Notes under the pieces: model-generated | Databases searched by the model: none | What the model was told of the DNA's origin: nothing | The model's input: only the letters and a program-made list of their open reading frames with translations | Virus genome (UHGV): UHGV-0293664 | Length of the DNA stretch: 64,000 nucleotides | Source: a virus | Direction: 5' to 3' (one strand) | Made by a program: the position numbers and the translations under genes | In this document: one piece after another, positions 3,397 through 9,528 of the stretch | How positions within the stretch are numbered: the stretch's first letter is position 1 | Layout: each line of letters starts with the position of its first letter

Positions 3397-3471
3397 GCCC
3401 TGTTAGCTTAGTGGATAAAGCAGCGGCCTTCTAAGCCGTTGACACTGGTTCGAGTCCAGTACGGGGTGCCA
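3397..3471 (+). tRNA. tRNA-Arg (anticodon TCT)
   Basis: Hand-folded cloverleaf: 7-bp acceptor stem (two G-U pairs), D-loop with GG, anticodon loop cttctaa, T-arm actgg-ttcgagt-ccagt, encoded CCA. Confidence 0.7.
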
Positions 3472-3601
3472 AGTTCTTTTTAATGTAGCTTACTTTAGCA
3501 GAGTAAATCTTCGGCAAGTGGCGGTAACCACTTTACCGATACCTCATAGTTAGTGGTGAGAACACTAGCTATTTTAAAAAGAATTTAAATATTAGTATTT
3601 A

Positions 3602-3689
3602 GGTGAGTTAATTCCGTAGGGGTAGCGGGGCAGACTGTAAATCTGTTATCATTGCGATTCGGGTGGTTCGACTCCATCACTCACCACCA
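3602..3689 (+). tRNA. tRNA-Tyr (anticodon GTA), long variable arm
   Basis: Acceptor ggtgagt/actcacc, anticodon loop ctgtaaa, long variable arm, T-loop ttcgact, encoded CCA. Confidence 0.7.
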
Positions 3690-3803
3690 AATTTATATTT
3701 TTAAATGCATAAATCATACAGATAATGGCATTGATATTTATCGTCGTTTATACTAGTCACTAACTGCTCGAAAATCAGTGTCATTATCAGTATTGTTTAT
3801 AAA

Positions 3804-3894
3804 AGAGGGTAGGGAGCAATGGTGCTCAAGCGGTCTTGAAAACCGTCCCGTTGAGGATGACTCGATGATGGTTCGATTCCATTATCCTCTGCCA
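3804..3894 (+). tRNA. tRNA-Ser (anticodon TGA), long variable arm
   Basis: Acceptor agagggt/atcctct, anticodon stem gcggt/accgt with loop cttgaaa, long variable arm, T-loop ttcgatt, encoded CCA. Confidence 0.7.
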
Positions 3895-3992
3895 TATTGT
3901 TGACCTTGTAATTAAGCGAAAGCCGGAAGCAGAACCGGATTATCAAATGTTACAGTCGTCATCGCCGACTAGCAACATGGTCAACATACTGA

Positions 3993-4089
3993 GCTAGGTA
4001 AGCCCTTTGGCAAGGGCGAGGATTTTTAATCCTGAAAATAGACGAGGTAGTCGTTGAATACATAGGTGGTTCGATTCCATCACCTAGCA
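3993..4089 (+). tRNA. aberrant 97-nt tRNA-like gene (possible anticodon TTT; isotype unresolved; may be a pseudogene)
   Basis: Perfect 7-bp acceptor stem gctaggt/acctagc, canonical D-arm gccc-tttggcaa-gggc and T-arm ggtgg-ttcgatt-ccatc, but about 30 extra nt between anticodon and T arms and no encoded CCA. Confidence 0.4.
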
Positions 4090-4096
4090 CCTTTTT

Positions 4097-4172
4097 GCTG
4101 ATGTAGCACAATTGGTAGTGCAATTGATTTGTAATCAATAGGTTGCAGGTTCGAGTCCTGCTATCAGCACCA
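4097..4172 (+). tRNA. tRNA-Thr (anticodon TGT)
   Basis: Acceptor gctgatg/tatcagc, anticodon stem attga/tcaat with loop tttgtaa, T-arm gcagg-ttcgagt-cctgc, encoded CCA. Confidence 0.75.
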
Positions 4173-4173
4173 T

Positions 4174-4248
4174 GGCCCTGTAGCTGGAAGGTTCAAGCAA
4201 GCGACTCATAATCGCCAGACGGTGGTTCAATTCCACCCAGGGCCACCA
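4174..4248 (+). tRNA. tRNA with CAT anticodon (Met, or Ile if lysidine-modified)
   Basis: Perfect acceptor ggccctg/cagggcc, anticodon loop ctcataa, T-arm ggtgg-ttcaatt-ccacc, encoded CCA; D-stem and first anticodon-stem pair are imperfect. Confidence 0.6.
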
Positions 4249-4259
4249 AATAATAAATA

Positions 4260-4336
4260 CTCCGCGTAGCTCAGCTTGGTAGAGCGCCTGATTTGGGATC
4301 AGGAGGTCGAGTGTTCGAATCACTCCGTGGAGACCA
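4260..4336 (+). tRNA. tRNA-Pro (anticodon TGG)
   Basis: Acceptor ctccgcg/cgtggag, D-arm gctc-agcttggtag-agcg, anticodon stem cctga/tcagg with loop tttggga (G37), T-arm gagtg-ttcgaat-cactc, encoded CCA. Confidence 0.75.
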
Positions 4337-4758: not shown

Positions 4759-5157
4759 ATGATTTCAGTTTTAACATGGCTGAGCAGGTATAGAGGGGTC
4801 ATAAAAGGTTTAGTTTTTGCAGCTGCGATAGGTACAGCTTATCTTGGGGCCGTATATTGGTTTAACTCTAAGATTAATGAAGCCTACCAAGAGGGTGTAT
4901 CAGCAACAGAGTTAAAGTGGGAACGGATCCTTGATCAGCAACAAAAGCAGGCCGACAAAATTAAAATGGGCCACGCAGAGGAGGTTAAAAACCTTGAAAA
5001 ATCCCTTTCTGATCTGCAGGATAAATTAAATATGGCTGAGAAGGCAGGTAAAGAAAAGCAGATTATCTACCTCCAGTCACCTGAGGGCAAGAAGTCAACA
5101 CTTCCTGATCAGCTTATAGATATTTATAATGAGAGTATCAATCAGGAGGATCAATGA
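4759..5157 (+). CDS. i-spanin (Rz-like inner-membrane spanin)
   Basis: N-terminal hydrophobic segment GLVFAAAIGTAYLGAVYWF followed by a charged coiled-coil region; next gene overlaps its 3' end. Confidence 0.5.
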   Translation: MISVLTWLSRYRGVIKGLVFAAAIGTAYLGAVYWFNSKINEAYQEGVSATELKWERILDQQQKQADKIKMGHAEEVKNLEKSLSDLQDKLNMAEKAGKEKQIIYLQSPEGKKSTLPDQLIDIYNESINQEDQ

Positions 5158-5441
5158 GAGTTGCTACACTGTTTATTGTGTGCTTGTTATTATGTGGGTG
5201 TGCAACCAGCGTTGAGAGAGAATACAAGATTGACCCTCCTGATGTAGGAAGGTTGATTGTTAAACCCCCGGAAGGTGCCATGAAACCACCTGCTAAAGCT
5301 ATGCCTTTGAAGAAAGGTGCGCCAGATGCAGTGAATTCTGGCATTATGAGGGATAATAATCTGTCTTGTAGCAATGATAGAGTTAAATTGATCATTTTGC
5401 AAGACTATATTAGAACACTGTTTCCAAAGGAGAGAGGTTAA
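5154..5441 (+). CDS. o-spanin (Rz1-like outer-membrane lipoprotein)
   Basis: Signal peptide with lipobox-like LLLCGCAT, Pro-rich mature part (PPDVGRLIVKPPEGAMKPPAKAMP); start overlaps the i-spanin stop. Confidence 0.5.
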   Translation: MRVATLFIVCLLLCGCATSVEREYKIDPPDVGRLIVKPPEGAMKPPAKAMPLKKGAPDAVNSGIMRDNNLSCSNDRVKLIILQDYIRTLFPKERG

Positions 5442-5866
5442 TGTCTAAGATTTACGGACCGTGTTCTGAAAAGCAGAAGATGATCCTAGAAAACGATGCA
5501 GATATTTTGGTAATCGGCGGTGCCGCAGGGTCTGGCAAGTCGTTCCTCCTGCAGTTGATGCCGCTTAAAATTATTGATGACCCACACAGCTCTGTGGTTA
5601 TGTTCCGAAGAACAACTCCACAGTTGGAAGGTGAGGGTGGGCTATGGCCTAAAGCAGTAGCTATTTACAGTGATCTGCCTGAAAACATTAAACCAAAGTT
5701 CAGAGAAAAGGATCATAAGTTTATTTTTCCACGGTTTGATCCGAGCACTGGCAAGTGGGATAGGAGCAAAAAGGGGGCCGTTGTAAAATACTGCCACATG
5801 GAGTATGTCCAAGATAAGCTTAACCATCAAGGCCTTGAGTACACAATGGTTTGCTTCGATGAGGGT
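5441..5866 (+). CDS. terL: terminase large subunit, exon 1 (ATPase N-terminal part)
   Basis: Walker A GGAAGSGKS and Walker B MVCFDE; the ORF stops at TAA straight after the Walker B region, where terminases normally continue. Confidence 0.75.
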
Positions 5867-6749
5867 TAATTTGTAGCTCTCGTAAAACCTCCCTAATTGC
5901 GGGGAAATCTTTATTATTGACACCACCAACCTGTCATGGTAACATGATAGAGGCTTCGAAGAGAGATCGAAGGTATGGTAACAGTGTGTTAATTTAGATA
6001 ATCCGCAGCGAAGCATCCGAAAGGATGAACGTTCAACGACTAGTCGAAAGACGTAGAATCAAGCGATTCGAAACGGGAGGGTGAATGTGTAATACTAAAA
6101 AATGTATGGATTGCCAAAGAGTTCTACCTCTTGATGATTTCTTTTTATCATCTAAGAGCAAGGATGGATACTCCGGTACATGCAAGGAATGCTATATGTA
6201 CTACAGGAAGAATGGATCTCGTAGAAACAAAAATATGGTTAAGAGAGATGATGCAGCATCTTTTATTCAAGACTTACTGAAGAAAGGTGAGCTTTTTGAA
6301 TGTAAATCTTGTCATGAAAGTATGCTTGCTGATAGTTTTTACACAAAACGTGACTATGGTAAAGTGTATCTGGTTACGAACAGGTGTAAGATGTGTGAAA
6401 AGTTTTATCAGATTGAGAAGAAATTTCACATAACAAAAGATGAATACTATCGTTTACTCTCAGATCAAGATCATAAGTGTGCCATTTGTAGAATATCTCT
6501 TGATGAGTATAGGACGCAAGGGTACAGAGATTTCTTTTGTGTTGATCATGACCATAAAACTGGTGCTGTAAGAGGGTTGCTTTGTGATAAATGCAACAGA
6601 GCTTTAGGTTTCTTCCAAGAGGATGAGGAAACCATTCTTAGAGCAGCAGAGTATTTGCACATTCATAAGATATAGTCTGGTCTGCATGGAGACATGCAGC
6701 TGCCTGAAAATGGCGGGGCAAGACTAGCGACCTTGCCCGAACATAAACG
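5867..6749 (+). mobile_element. putative group I-type self-splicing intron carrying an HNH homing endonuclease gene
   Basis: Separates the two terminase halves, which are in different frames; exon 1 ends in T and the proposed intron ends in G; hairpins with GAAA tetraloops (catcc-gaaa-ggatg, tcgaaaga); boundaries approximate. Confidence 0.5.
6085..6675 (+). CDS. HNH homing endonuclease (endonuclease VII-like HNH family)
   Basis: Motif CVDHDHKTGAVRGLLCDKCNRALG plus several CxxC zinc-ligand pairs; lies inside the terminase-interrupting insertion. Confidence 0.8.
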   Translation: MCNTKKCMDCQRVLPLDDFFLSSKSKDGYSGTCKECYMYYRKNGSRRNKNMVKRDDAASFIQDLLKKGELFECKSCHESMLADSFYTKRDYGKVYLVTNRCKMCEKFYQIEKKFHITKDEYYRLLSDQDHKCAICRISLDEYRTQGYRDFFCVDHDHKTGAVRGLLCDKCNRALGFFQEDEETILRAAEYLHIHKI

Positions 6750-7871
6750 ACGCAGTTCGAATGGGAGCAGATAGACTATCTGATGTCTCGTCTGCGATCT
6801 CAGTCAAAGTATCCATCAAGAATGGTTATCAGCTGTAACCCCGATTCAGAACACATGCTTGCCAAACTGGTTAGGTGGTGGTTGGACGATGAAGGGTATC
6901 CAGATCCGGAGAAATGCGGTAAGAAAAGATATTTTATCCGACGCGACGGTGAATTTATCTGGGGAGACTCTAAAGAAGAGTTGATAGAGAAATACACCAC
7001 GGTTAACGGACTGGGTGTAGAGATCAAGCCGAGACCGTTGTCATTCTCGTTTATAGGCGCAACAATCTTCGATAATCCTGTCTGTTTGAGAGACAACCCA
7101 GAATACCTTGCTTTCCTTGAAGGTCTACCCGAGCTTGAAAAAGCTCAGCTTCTTCATGGCAACTGGTTTGCCAAACCTGAGGGTGCGAACTATTTCCAAA
7201 GATCTTTCCTTCGTGATGCCGATAGAGTACCACTTGGATCAGTATCTTGCAGGGCATGGGATAAAGCTGGAACTGAAAGAACTTCAGGTAATAAATTCCC
7301 TGACTTTACCGCCAGTGTTAAGGTAAGTAAAGATAGCGACGGCTTTTATTACCTGTCCGGTTATTATTGTCCTGAGAACGTGGATGACGGGAGGTATTCC
7401 ACAGGTCTGGAAGGTAAGTTCTGTAAAAAGGCTGGTGAACGAGATGTGATCATCAGGAAACAGGCACAGTTTGATGGTGATGATTGTATAATCGTATTCT
7501 CTGTGGACCCCGGTCAGGCAGGTAAGAGTGAGTTCTTAACTTCCTCCAGATCCTTACTCGCCGAAGGGTTTAGGGTTGAAGAAGACCCAATGCCTTCCAA
7601 CAAATCTAAACTAACAAGGTTCTCACCTTTTGCCAATCTTGCCCAACAAGGAATGGTGAGGATTGTAAAATCCAGTTTTCATCCTGATACTCTGGAAGCA
7701 TTTCTGACTGAACTTGAAAAATTCAACGGGGAAAGATCAACATTTAACAGAAAAGACGACTGGGCCGACTGTGTAGCTTCTGCGATTAATTTCCTGGAGA
7801 AAGAGGAGGTAGCACTTCCTTGTGTTATTCCATCAATCTCATCACCTTCTATGTTCAAGCGTTTTATCTAA
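6750..7871 (+). CDS. terL: terminase large subunit, exon 2 (coupling and nuclease C-terminal part)
   Basis: Frame open from 6747; proposed junction gives ...MVCFDEG|TQFEWEQIDYLMSRLR...; SRMVISCNPDSEH coupling-like motif, acidic nuclease-like motifs FSVDPGQAGK and DDWADCVASAINF. Confidence 0.7.
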   Translation, partial: TQFEWEQIDYLMSRLRSQSKYPSRMVISCNPDSEHMLAKLVRWWLDDEGYPDPEKCGKKRYFIRRDGEFIWGDSKEELIEKYTTVNGLGVEIKPRPLSFSFIGATIFDNPVCLRDNPEYLAFLEGLPELEKAQLLHGNWFAKPEGANYFQRSFLRDADRVPLGSVSCRAWDKAGTERTSGNKFPDFTASVKVSKDSDGFYYLSGYYCPENVDDGRYSTGLEGKFCKKAGERDVIIRKQAQFDGDDCIIVFSVDPGQAGKSEFLTSSRSLLAEGFRVEEDPMPSNKSKLTRFSPFANLAQQGMVRIVKSSFHPDTLEAFLTELEKFNGERSTFNRKDDWADCVASAINFLEKEEVALPCVIPSISSPSMFKRFI

Positions 7872-7903: not shown

Positions 7904-7919
7904 AGAGTAATTGGAGATA

Positions 7920-7946
7920 ATAGCCCTCTGATGAGGGCTATTTTGT
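7920..7946 (+). terminator. hairpin plus T-tract just downstream of the promoter (possible attenuator)
   Basis: atagccctc-tgatg-agggctat followed by tttgtt, about 20 nt downstream of the -10 and upstream of the portal RBS. Confidence 0.4.
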
Positions 7947-7971: not shown

Positions 7972-9528
7972 GTGTCCAAAAAGAACCGCAGGAAACACAA
8001 CGCCACAGCCAAAACTGTGAATAAATCTGGGAACGCAGGCGCACCAACTCATAATGTTCGTATGAGTGAGATCGGTTCTGGCGCACTTTCCCAAATTATG
8101 GCAGAATCGCAATCTATGATGGTTGAGGAATTGCGTTGGCCTCAGCTGATTGCCACCGTGGAGACTATGAAATGTGATTCCACAGTTGCTACTGCCTTAG
8201 ATACAAAATATGTTTTCATCACGAAAGCATTCAATGATTTTAAGATCCTTTATAATGTTAAAAGTGAAGACTCTAAGAAAGCTGCAGAGCTTATAGAGTA
8301 TTCTTTGCGTAATTTGGCAAACCAACAAACTCTTCGAGATATCGCAAGAAGCGCAGCTACCTTTAACGAGTATGGTTTTTCACTGTTTGAGAAAGTATAC
8401 CGCAGAGAGAAAGAAGGTAAATATGCCGGGATGCTTCTTATTGATAAAATTGCATTCCGACCTCAGGCCAGCTTGTCCAGATCAGAGCCGTTTGTTTTTG
8501 ACAAGAATAGTAGAACACTGACAGGTATTTATCAGTCACCTAATGCATTTCTAAACACTCAGAATGCACGCTGGGCTGGACCTCTTGCTGCAATGCCTTC
8601 AAAAGGCTTTAATGAGCCTGAAATTTTCATCCCTGCTAAAAAGCTTATGCTCATGACCCTGTCAGGAACAGAATCTAACCCTGCAGGTGTATCACCAATG
8701 ATAGGTTGCTACAGATCTTTCCGTGAGAAAGTTCTGATTGAAAACCTTGAGGTTGTTGGCTGTTCCAAAGACCTTGGTGGTGTGCTTGAGCTGAAAATTC
8801 CTTCCAATATTTTGAACAAGGCCAGCATTGACCCGAATTCAATGGAAGGGAGAATGGTTGCAGACCTTATGCTTGACGCAGCAAACGCCCATAGTGGTGA
8901 GCAAAGTTTCTTTATACTTCCGTCTGATAGAGATAAGTCTGGTAAAGAGCTTTACTCCATGACCCTGAAGGGGGTTGACGGTATGGGTAAGCAGTATTCC
9001 ACTAAAGATTTGATTGATGCCCGTAAGAAGGCGATTCTTGACCGTTTCGGTGCTGGCTTTATTAACCTTGGTAACGATAACGTCGGATCTTTCTCTCTGT
9101 CTGAGTCAAAACAGTCTATCCATGGTCATTTTGTTCAGCGTGATATAGATATTATCACTGAGGCCTTCAATAAAGATCTTATCCCACAGCTTCTGGCATT
9201 GAATGGTATCATCCTTGAAGATGATGATATGCCTAAACTGAAACCTGGTCTGATTGAAGAGGTGGACATGGAGAGCTTCTCCAAGTTTGTCCAGAGGATC
9301 GGTGCTGTAGGTTACTTGCCAAAAACTCCTGCAGTAATTAATAAGATTCTTGAAGTAGGCGGGTTTGATGAAAGATTTGACGAGGACATGGATCAGGAAG
9401 AGCTGATGAAGCTCTTGGGCCAGGACATTAGTAGGGCTGGTGATGGAATGGCTGCAGGATCCACTGGCAACGGCACTTCTAAGATGTCATCAACCAGAGA
9501 TAATTCCATATCCAACATGGAAAATTAA
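7972..9528 (+). CDS. portal protein
   Basis: 518-aa ORF (GTG start after RBS GAGGGG) directly downstream of terminase; size and position typical of portal; no motif check possible. Confidence 0.55.
   Translation: MSKKNRRKHNATAKTVNKSGNAGAPTHNVRMSEIGSGALSQIMAESQSMMVEELRWPQLIATVETMKCDSTVATALDTKYVFITKAFNDFKILYNVKSEDSKKAAELIEYSLRNLANQQTLRDIARSAATFNEYGFSLFEKVYRREKEGKYAGMLLIDKIAFRPQASLSRSEPFVFDKNSRTLTGIYQSPNAFLNTQNARWAGPLAAMPSKGFNEPEIFIPAKKLMLMTLSGTESNPAGVSPMIGCYRSFREKVLIENLEVVGCSKDLGGVLELKIPSNILNKASIDPNSMEGRMVADLMLDAANAHSGEQSFFILPSDRDKSGKELYSMTLKGVDGMGKQYSTKDLIDARKKAILDRFGAGFINLGNDNVGSFSLSESKQSIHGHFVQRDIDIITEAFNKDLIPQLLALNGIILEDDDMPKLKPGLIEEVDMESFSKFVQRIGAVGYLPKTPAVINKILEVGGFDERFDEDMDQEELMKLLGQDISRAGDGMAAGSTGNGTSKMSSTRDNSISNMEN

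Follow-up and report, generated by a model that had tools for sequence, protein, structure and literature searches.

How does a phage assemble one large terminase from a gene whose two halves lie 883 nucleotides (nt) apart and in different reading frames? The large terminase subunit gene (terL) of the virus genome UHGV-0293664 raises this question. The window, that is, the whole stretch of DNA analysed here, comprises 64,000 nt and belongs to an rV5-like coliphage (Vequintavirus), with a terL region approximately 97% identical to many GenBank records. A preliminary description, made from the letters alone, proposed that terL is split by an intron-like insertion carrying an HNH homing endonuclease gene. 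Our analysis supports a group I intron of the phage IA type that interrupts terL directly after the Walker B motif (..DEG), a reading to which we assign a probability of roughly 0.93. Such a terL intron is a real feature, already described and annotated for rV5-like phages in the section 'Introns in terminase' of Kropinski et al. 2013 (PMC3606486), who credit D. Shub with defining the intron location. The additions made here are small. They concern the association between the intron and a U at the last exon 1 base (position -1), a short co-conversion tract, endonuclease signals placed within the ribozyme helices P3, P8 and P7, and an empty second intron site at 7066/7067. The interrupted gene is composed of the following parts.

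5441..5866 (+): terL exon 1, from the open reading frame (ORF) list, a Pfam Terminase_6N match and intron-less alleles that are collinear up to 5866
5867..6749 (+): group I intron, subgroup IA-type, 883 nt, from a full-length match to RF00028 and exact presence/absence in relatives
6085..6675 (+): complete ORF of 196 amino acids (aa), putative homing endonuclease, Pfam Endonuclease_7 (PF02945), 76 bits, E 2e-21
6750..7871 (+): terL exon 2, Pfam Terminase_6N positions 110-211 and Terminase_6C, stop codon 7869-7871 included

The two exons encode complementary parts of one protein. The exon 1 frame (5441..5869, 142 aa) closes at a TAA (5867-5869) directly after ..DEG and covers the N-terminal ATPase part, with Walker A (GGAAGSGKS) at aa 26-34 and Walker B (..MVCFDE) at aa 136-141. 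The downstream frame is open from 6747, after a TAA at 6744-6746, to 7871, and differs from that of exon 1 by one base (883 = 3x294+1). Both the position of the first stop and the resumption in another frame agree with the preliminary description. Exon 2 begins TQFEWEQIDYL.. and supplies the remaining ATPase domain and the RNase H-like nuclease domain. Analysed separately, the first half matches Terminase_6N positions 2-104, and the second matches positions 110-211 plus Terminase_6C. Joining 5866 to 6750, as had been proposed, does yield a continuous terminase of 515 aa, in which Terminase_6N forms a single stretch (2-211/215) scoring 72.6 bits versus 26.1 and 31.8 bits for the halves alone, and to which Terminase_6C matches as well. 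The joined product unites in one polypeptide the Walker A/B ATPase and C-terminal RNase H-like nuclease of large terminases. It is identical to the uninterrupted TerL of JeffSchatz at 513 of 515 positions and collinear with uninterrupted TerL proteins of other genera at 34-69% identity. A PDB sequence search with the joined TerL returned no solved structures at E<=0.01.

Comparison with intron-less terminase genes delimits the insert. Relatives that are approximately 96% identical lack exactly 5867..6749, the full 883 nt, and read ..GATGAGGGC/ACGCAGTTC.., with ACGCAG.. after the junction (slashes within sequences mark junctions throughout). The allele survey comprised 17 alleles, namely the window, 12 GenBank records and 4 IMG/VR contigs; pattern scans of IMG/VR for the two junction types produced only 2+2 contigs, so the survey rests mainly on these 17. 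The 7 alleles that bear the intron all have T at exon base -1 (5866), and the 10 without it all have C; the codon specifies Gly either way. The fixation of U at this position in intron-bearing alleles fits the U·G pairing that P1 of the ribozyme requires.

The insert itself has the anatomy of a complete group I ribozyme. It starts with UAAUUUGUAG and ends with ..CAUAAACG, with the omega-G at 6749 as its last base, and exon 1 ends in U5866 at the 5' splice site. A covariance-model search with Intron_gpI (RF00028) matched 5857..6699 over the full model at 47 bits, with E 1.5e-10 in a 1.2-kb search and E 8e-9 window-wide, and the alignment pairs U5866 with G5876 in P1, which marks the proposed 5' splice site. 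Base pairing in every proposed helix of the window intron was then checked by script, with the outcome given below.

5861-5868 (GAGGGU/UA) with 5874-5881 (UAGCUCUC) (+): P1, from cmscan, 8/8 paired, U5866·G5876 wobble
U5872-U5874 with exon 2 bases 6750-6752 (+): possible P10 of 3 base pairs (bp), 3/3 paired
5882..6082 (+): 5' ribozyme core, from cmscan, helices fully paired
5888-5893 with 6075-6080 (+): P3, from cmscan, fully paired
5898-5903 with 6002-6007 (+): P4, from cmscan, fully paired
5907-5910 with 5996-5999 (+): P5, fully paired, with a P5 extension of about 85 nt
6008-6009 with 6031-6032 (+): P6, fully paired
6014-6027 (+): P6a with GAAA loop, fully paired
6038-6042 (GACUA) with 6673-6677 (UAGUC) (+): P7, fully paired, guanosine-binding site and pseudoknot with P3
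6043-6052 (+): P7.1 (GUC-GAAA-GAC) with GAAA loop, fully paired
6056-6069 (+): P7.2 (GAAUC-AAGC-GAUUC), fully paired
6083..6664 (+): P8 with the ORF insert in its loop; stem GAAUGUG 6083-6089 with CACAUUC 6658-6664, 7/7 paired; BLAST breakpoints 6082/6665
6665..6749 (+): 3' ribozyme part including J8/7 and the P7 3' strand, from cmscan and the pair check
6682-6699 (+): P9 with GAGA loop, fully paired
6702-6714 (+): P9.1, fully paired
6716-6738 (+): P9.2, fully paired
ending at 6749 (+): 3' tail GAACAUAAACG with the omega-G, the start of exon 2 being set by the intron-less alleles

These elements include the conserved P3-P8 core, the U·G pair of P1 at the 5' splice site, the omega-G and the P7/P3 pseudoknot that define group I introns. 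The presence of P7.1 and P7.2 between P7 and the 3' strand of P3 places the intron in subgroup IA; in the Michel-Westhof classification, these two helices are the mark of this phage-typical subgroup. The preliminary description had pointed to hairpins with GAAA tetraloops, to the U at the end of exon 1 and to the G at the end of the insert. All of these were recovered, the tetraloops in P6a and P7.1, and the covariance match added the P3-P7 core. Moreover, the 3' 77 nt (J8/7-P7-P9 region) share approximately 82% identity with the 3' part of the T4 td intron. Three other explanations, namely an intein, a group II intron and programmed frameshifting, were weighed and discarded, as no reverse-transcriptase ORF is present, the insert contains stops in the terL frame, and the match to the ribozyme is unambiguous.

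Additional evidence comes from an ORF-less form of the same ribozyme, 319 nt long, that occupies the same site in phages such as magaca, rV5 and RudolfGeigy. These sister introns are near-identical to the window ribozyme outside the ORF insert, and they score 84-85 bits (E about 1e-20) against the Rfam gathering threshold of 50 bits for Intron_gpI. The segment 6083..6664 is represented in them by the 18-nt hairpin AAGCGGUUGUUGUCGCUU. Hence, P8 is built from different helices that are equally well paired, AAGCG../..CGCUU in the ORF-less form versus GAAUGUG/CACAUUC in the ORF-bearing one.

Several observations weigh against the group I reading or the mobility attached to it. The window's own Rfam score of 47 bits lies 3 below the gathering threshold, and P10 in the window allele has 3 bp only, one of which is G·U. 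The cleavage site of the endonuclease and its specificity for intron-less alleles are putative. Finally, we found no report in the literature that demonstrates splicing or endonuclease activity for rV5-like terL introns. Rfam at gathering thresholds reported tRNAs only, and no intron, across the whole window. The 3-bit shortfall is explained by the 582-nt ORF insert, which lowers the score, and the discrepancy disappeared once hits were judged by E-value and the ORF-less relatives were scored. A window-wide Rfam E-value scan detected no further sub-threshold group I introns.

The sub-threshold score could also signify decay. The intron would then be a splicing-incompetent relic, such as a defective phage or a metagenomic assembly might contain, and terL would be a pseudogene, a scenario that gains something from the fact that splicing is deduced from sequence and from the third base of exon 2, a G instead of an A, which weakens P10. 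We nonetheless regard a relic as highly improbable. Only 2 positions in the ribozyme parts, and 18 in the ORF region, distinguish the window from the isolated and viable phage DrSchubert. One of the two ribozyme differences lies in the P5 extension, and the other converts a GAAA into a GAGA loop, both of the GNRA type. All helices are intact, as are both exons and the endonuclease ORF, and the low score has its explanation in the loop insert. We strongly infer that the group I intron of the window splices.

A further scenario leaves the insert in the RNA. Here, insertion of a homing-endonuclease gene would have divided terL, which would be expressed as two polypeptides, of 142 aa and of 362 aa from M6783, that reassemble as an active terminase, in parallel with the mobE-split nrdA of Aeromonas phage Aeh1. 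Several GenBank records do annotate two 'terminase large subunit' coding sequences (CDSs) of 429 nt and 1089 nt, and an ATG is present at 6783. However, the nearest Shine-Dalgarno (SD)-like sequence, GGGAG at 6763-6767, lies 15 nt upstream of this ATG, too distant for a normal ribosome-binding site. The 11 codons 6750-6782 lack an upstream in-frame start and would remain untranslated, yet intron-bearing alleles differ there by synonymous changes only. Besides, the insert has all the parts of a group I ribozyme, the 319-nt form interrupts the same place without any endonuclease, and U at -1 is fixed solely in intron-bearing alleles. A split terminase is therefore very hard to credit, and an intron that is spliced out accounts better for the locus. 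In many GenBank entries for rV5-like phages, terL still appears as two or three 'terminase' fragments, accompanied by a 'recombination endonuclease VII'. For the phage considered here, terL should be annotated as one CDS, join(5441..5866, 6750..7871).

A separate observation concerns Escherichia phage V18 (NC_041937), whose terL is intron-less. Around the exon junction of this record, 9 nt are duplicated (GGTTTGCTT) and a G is absent at ..GATGAGG-C, which breaks the terL annotation into two CDSs. An error in sequencing or assembly is the probable cause, not a biological change.

The protein encoded in the P8 loop is complete, as the preliminary description had noted, whereas its designation as HNH is correct only in the broad sense of a His-Me finger, since the match is to Endonuclease_7 and not to the Pfam HNH family. 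The C-terminal His-Me finger consists of C132/C135, D154-H155-D156-H157, C167/C170 and N171, and two CxxC...CxxC modules precede the nuclease domain. In a PDB search, the best solved relatives were Hpy99I (E 1.6e-5) and T4 endonuclease VII (E 7e-4). The C-terminal ~80 aa align with both, with conservation of CxxC...DHxH...CxxC-N, and the Hpy99I alignment spans 130 aa and includes the upstream Cys module. T4 endonuclease VII is a Holliday-junction resolvase and Hpy99I a restriction enzyme, whereas the homing role of the window protein is read from its genomic context. Its placement in a ribozyme loop and its presence/absence polymorphism among near-identical genomes, in combination with a His-Me motif bearing zinc-binding cysteines, indicate a homing function. 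Copies with 97-100% identity occur only in the rV5-like terL intron, and the next relative reaches 41%.

The position of this ORF within terL could suggest instead that the Endonuclease VII-type protein is a packaging accessory nuclease, comparable to the HNH proteins that aid some cos-phage terminases, and not, or not only, a homing enzyme. Endonuclease VII and HNH genes often adjoin terminase genes, and a match in Mycobacterium phage RomaT is filed under 'terminase'; for HNH-assisted terminases, the paper on Pectobacterium phage CB7 cites Kala et al. 2014 (PMC7344957). Approximately three quarters of the rV5-like phages, with TerL proteins more than 99% identical, do without the ORF, which makes an accessory role in packaging most unlikely. 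One copy of the ORF is frameshifted, and a ribozyme loop is the typical site of a mobile endonuclease gene. These features favor the homing enzyme.

The expression signals of the endonuclease gene are embedded in the ribozyme. The 3' strand of P3 serves as the SD sequence (GGGAGG, 6075-6080) of this gene, whose ATG lies in the 5' strand of P8 and whose TAG stop (6673-6675) falls within the 3' strand of P7. With the SD sequence in P3 and the start codon in P8, ribozyme folding and translation of the endonuclease should compete. A sigma-70-like site at 5917-5945 (TTGACA, 17 nt, TG-TAACAT; 10/12) is located in the P5 extension upstream of the ORF and could drive endonuclease expression. The promoter and terminator scan gave nothing above shuffled expectation, with 9 promoter-like sites versus 5.1±2.5.

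The distribution of the intron among relatives is that of a mobile element. Among ~123 rV5-like records in which the state of this first site was counted, 30 carry the intron with ORF (883 nt), ~25 carry the ORF-less form and the rest are empty, for example, JeffSchatz and Murica. The 883-nt intron with the same endonuclease (97-100% aa identity) is found in DrSchubert, ECP26, JES2013, APECc02 and others. At the start of exon 2 (6752/6755), the window reads ACG CAG like intron-less alleles, whereas most intron-bearing alleles read ACA CAA. Its wider exon haplotype likewise resembles the intron-less phages 206, phita32 and SYGMH1 and differs from other intron-bearing alleles. The occurrence of the intron on a different exon background points to a co-conversion tract of very limited length, a pattern that homing or recombination nearby would be expected to leave. 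In the metagenomic contig IMGVR_UViG_3300010279_000001, the intron measures 884 nt and the endonuclease ORF is frameshifted and cut to 89 aa. This gene is apparently decaying, consistent with the gain-decay cycle of homing genes.

A second insertion site in terL is empty in the window.

7066/7067 (..ACA AU/C UUC..) (+): empty second terL intron site, from the breakpoints in rV5, HdK5 and RudolfGeigy

This site lies 317 nt into exon 2 and is polymorphic among rV5-like phages. In rV5, HdK5 and ECML-10 it is occupied by a group I intron of 983 nt that contains an unrelated HNH ORF, and in RudolfGeigy by an ORF-less intron of 272 nt (Rfam 95.6 bits), for which P1 puts the splice site after ..CCAU. 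In the coordinates of the compared loci, the second intron extends over L005 1501-2483, L006 1501-1772 and L002 2765-3747. All four combinations of the two sites were found among the sampled phages. As a side observation on the records, 18 GenBank entries of the MG0656xx series bear the name 'Campylobacter phage' and the host C. jejuni and share 96-97% identity with rV5-like coliphages in this region; their host labels look doubtful.

Known systems place these findings in context. The T4 td intron, a self-splicing group IA2 intron encoding I-TevI, resembles the window intron as a phage group I element with P7.1/P7.2 and a looped-out endonuclease ORF, and differs in its host gene, thymidylate synthase. 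I-TevI is a GIY-YIG enzyme with its ORF in P6 of td, whereas the window intron encodes an Endonuclease VII-type enzyme in P8. In T4, RNA structure sequesters the start of the I-TevI ORF, and the interference predicted for the window would be analogous.

The closest precedents are the rV5-like phages themselves. The GenBank record of rV5 (NC_011041) presents terL as a three-piece join, 'ORF64ABC', with the HNH endonuclease in the second intron, and BASEL phages such as DrSchubert (MZ501060) are annotated with a joined terL CDS and a 'putative homing endonuclease'. The BASEL intron boundaries were annotated through comparative genomics (PMC8594841). These phages share with the window the gene, the site after ..DEG and a ribozyme that is ~97-99% identical outside the ORF. 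rV5 departs from the window in its 319-nt ORF-less form at the first site and in its second intron, with the unrelated HNH ORF, at 7066/7067.

More distant examples exist as well. Splicing of a terL intron was verified by reverse-transcription PCR in Pectobacterium phage CB7, a Certrevirus (PMC7344957), and the terL intron of Lactobacillus phage LL-H was described by Mikkonen and Alatossava 1995, cited in PMC3606486. Both have a group I intron in the large terminase gene, that of CB7 with an HNH-type ORF; CB7 shares the subfamily Vequintavirinae with the window phage, and the likeness is one of gene and intron type. In Pectobacterium phage phiTE (NC_020201, 1804-2619), the only Certrevirus match inspected, a related 3' part of the ribozyme (89% over 53 nt) adjoins an HNH ORF and sits between two ribonucleotide reductase fragments, not in terL. 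This location implies that related intron cores occupy different genes across Vequintavirinae. Introns of phiKZ-like Pseudomonas phages show approximately 72% identity to the 3' 190 nt of the window ribozyme. PhiPA3 offers a parallel in gp210, a His-Me/HNH-type endonuclease that, like the window protein, is encoded by an intron within an essential gene of the phage. Experiments established a role for gp210 in the competition between phages that infect the same cell (Birkholz et al. 2024, PMC11620839), a role that is hypothetical for rV5-like phages.

The first four steps of the mechanism outlined here are drawn from what is established for group I introns and for homing, to which our analysis contributes the anatomy. 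A terL precursor would be transcribed and its intron RNA would fold into P1-P9.2, with P3 and P7 forming the core pseudoknot. Exogenous guanosine would then attack after U5866 of the P1 U·G pair. The released 3'-OH of exon 1 would attack after the omega-G at 6749 and join ..GAU GAG GGU to ACG CAG... The expected spliced junction, ..GAUGAGGGU/ACGCAGUUC.., would give an mRNA for the 515-aa TerL. Without splicing, translation ends at the UAA 5867-5869, and full-length TerL, hence packaging, would depend on splicing, as the preliminary description had anticipated; we infer this dependence strongly. The endonuclease would be translated from unspliced or excised intron RNA. In a mixed infection, it would cut the intron-less terL (..GGC/ACG..; ..GATGAGGGCACGCAG..), and repair from the intron-bearing genome would copy the intron and a short flanking stretch of exon.

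The genes around terL are arranged compactly, and the elements adjoining it are listed here.

4759..5157: i-spanin gene, in the region directly upstream of terL
5154..5441: o-spanin gene, whose stop overlaps the terL start (TAATG 5439-5443)
7919-7942: terminator-like hairpin after terL and before the portal gene
7972..9528: portal gene, downstream of terL

Upstream of the lysis genes and terL lies a tRNA cluster at 3397-4336 (Arg-tct, Ser-tga, Thr-tgt, Met-cat, Pro-tgg). A tRNA-like element of 99 nt at 3993-4091 is called by ARAGORN with an unassigned anticodon of 4 bases (Rfam tRNA 35.5 bits), and the tRNA at 3602-3686 was detected by Rfam only (39 bits).

Overall, the element conforms to a textbook mobile group I intron at the catalytic motif of an essential late gene, and as such it opens no new question. 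Two extensions of this reading are tentative, and on present indications we think them unlikely. The endonuclease might cut the intron-less terL of co-infecting rV5-like phages, block their packaging and confer an advantage on the carrier, or splicing and endonuclease translation might be mutually exclusive. If the former holds, such competition would help explain the coexistence of three states at the first site among near-identical phages. If the latter holds, this exclusivity could couple endonuclease expression to late-gene timing. The three-state first site and the polymorphic second site make rV5-like phages convenient for studying homing, co-conversion and possible phage-phage competition.

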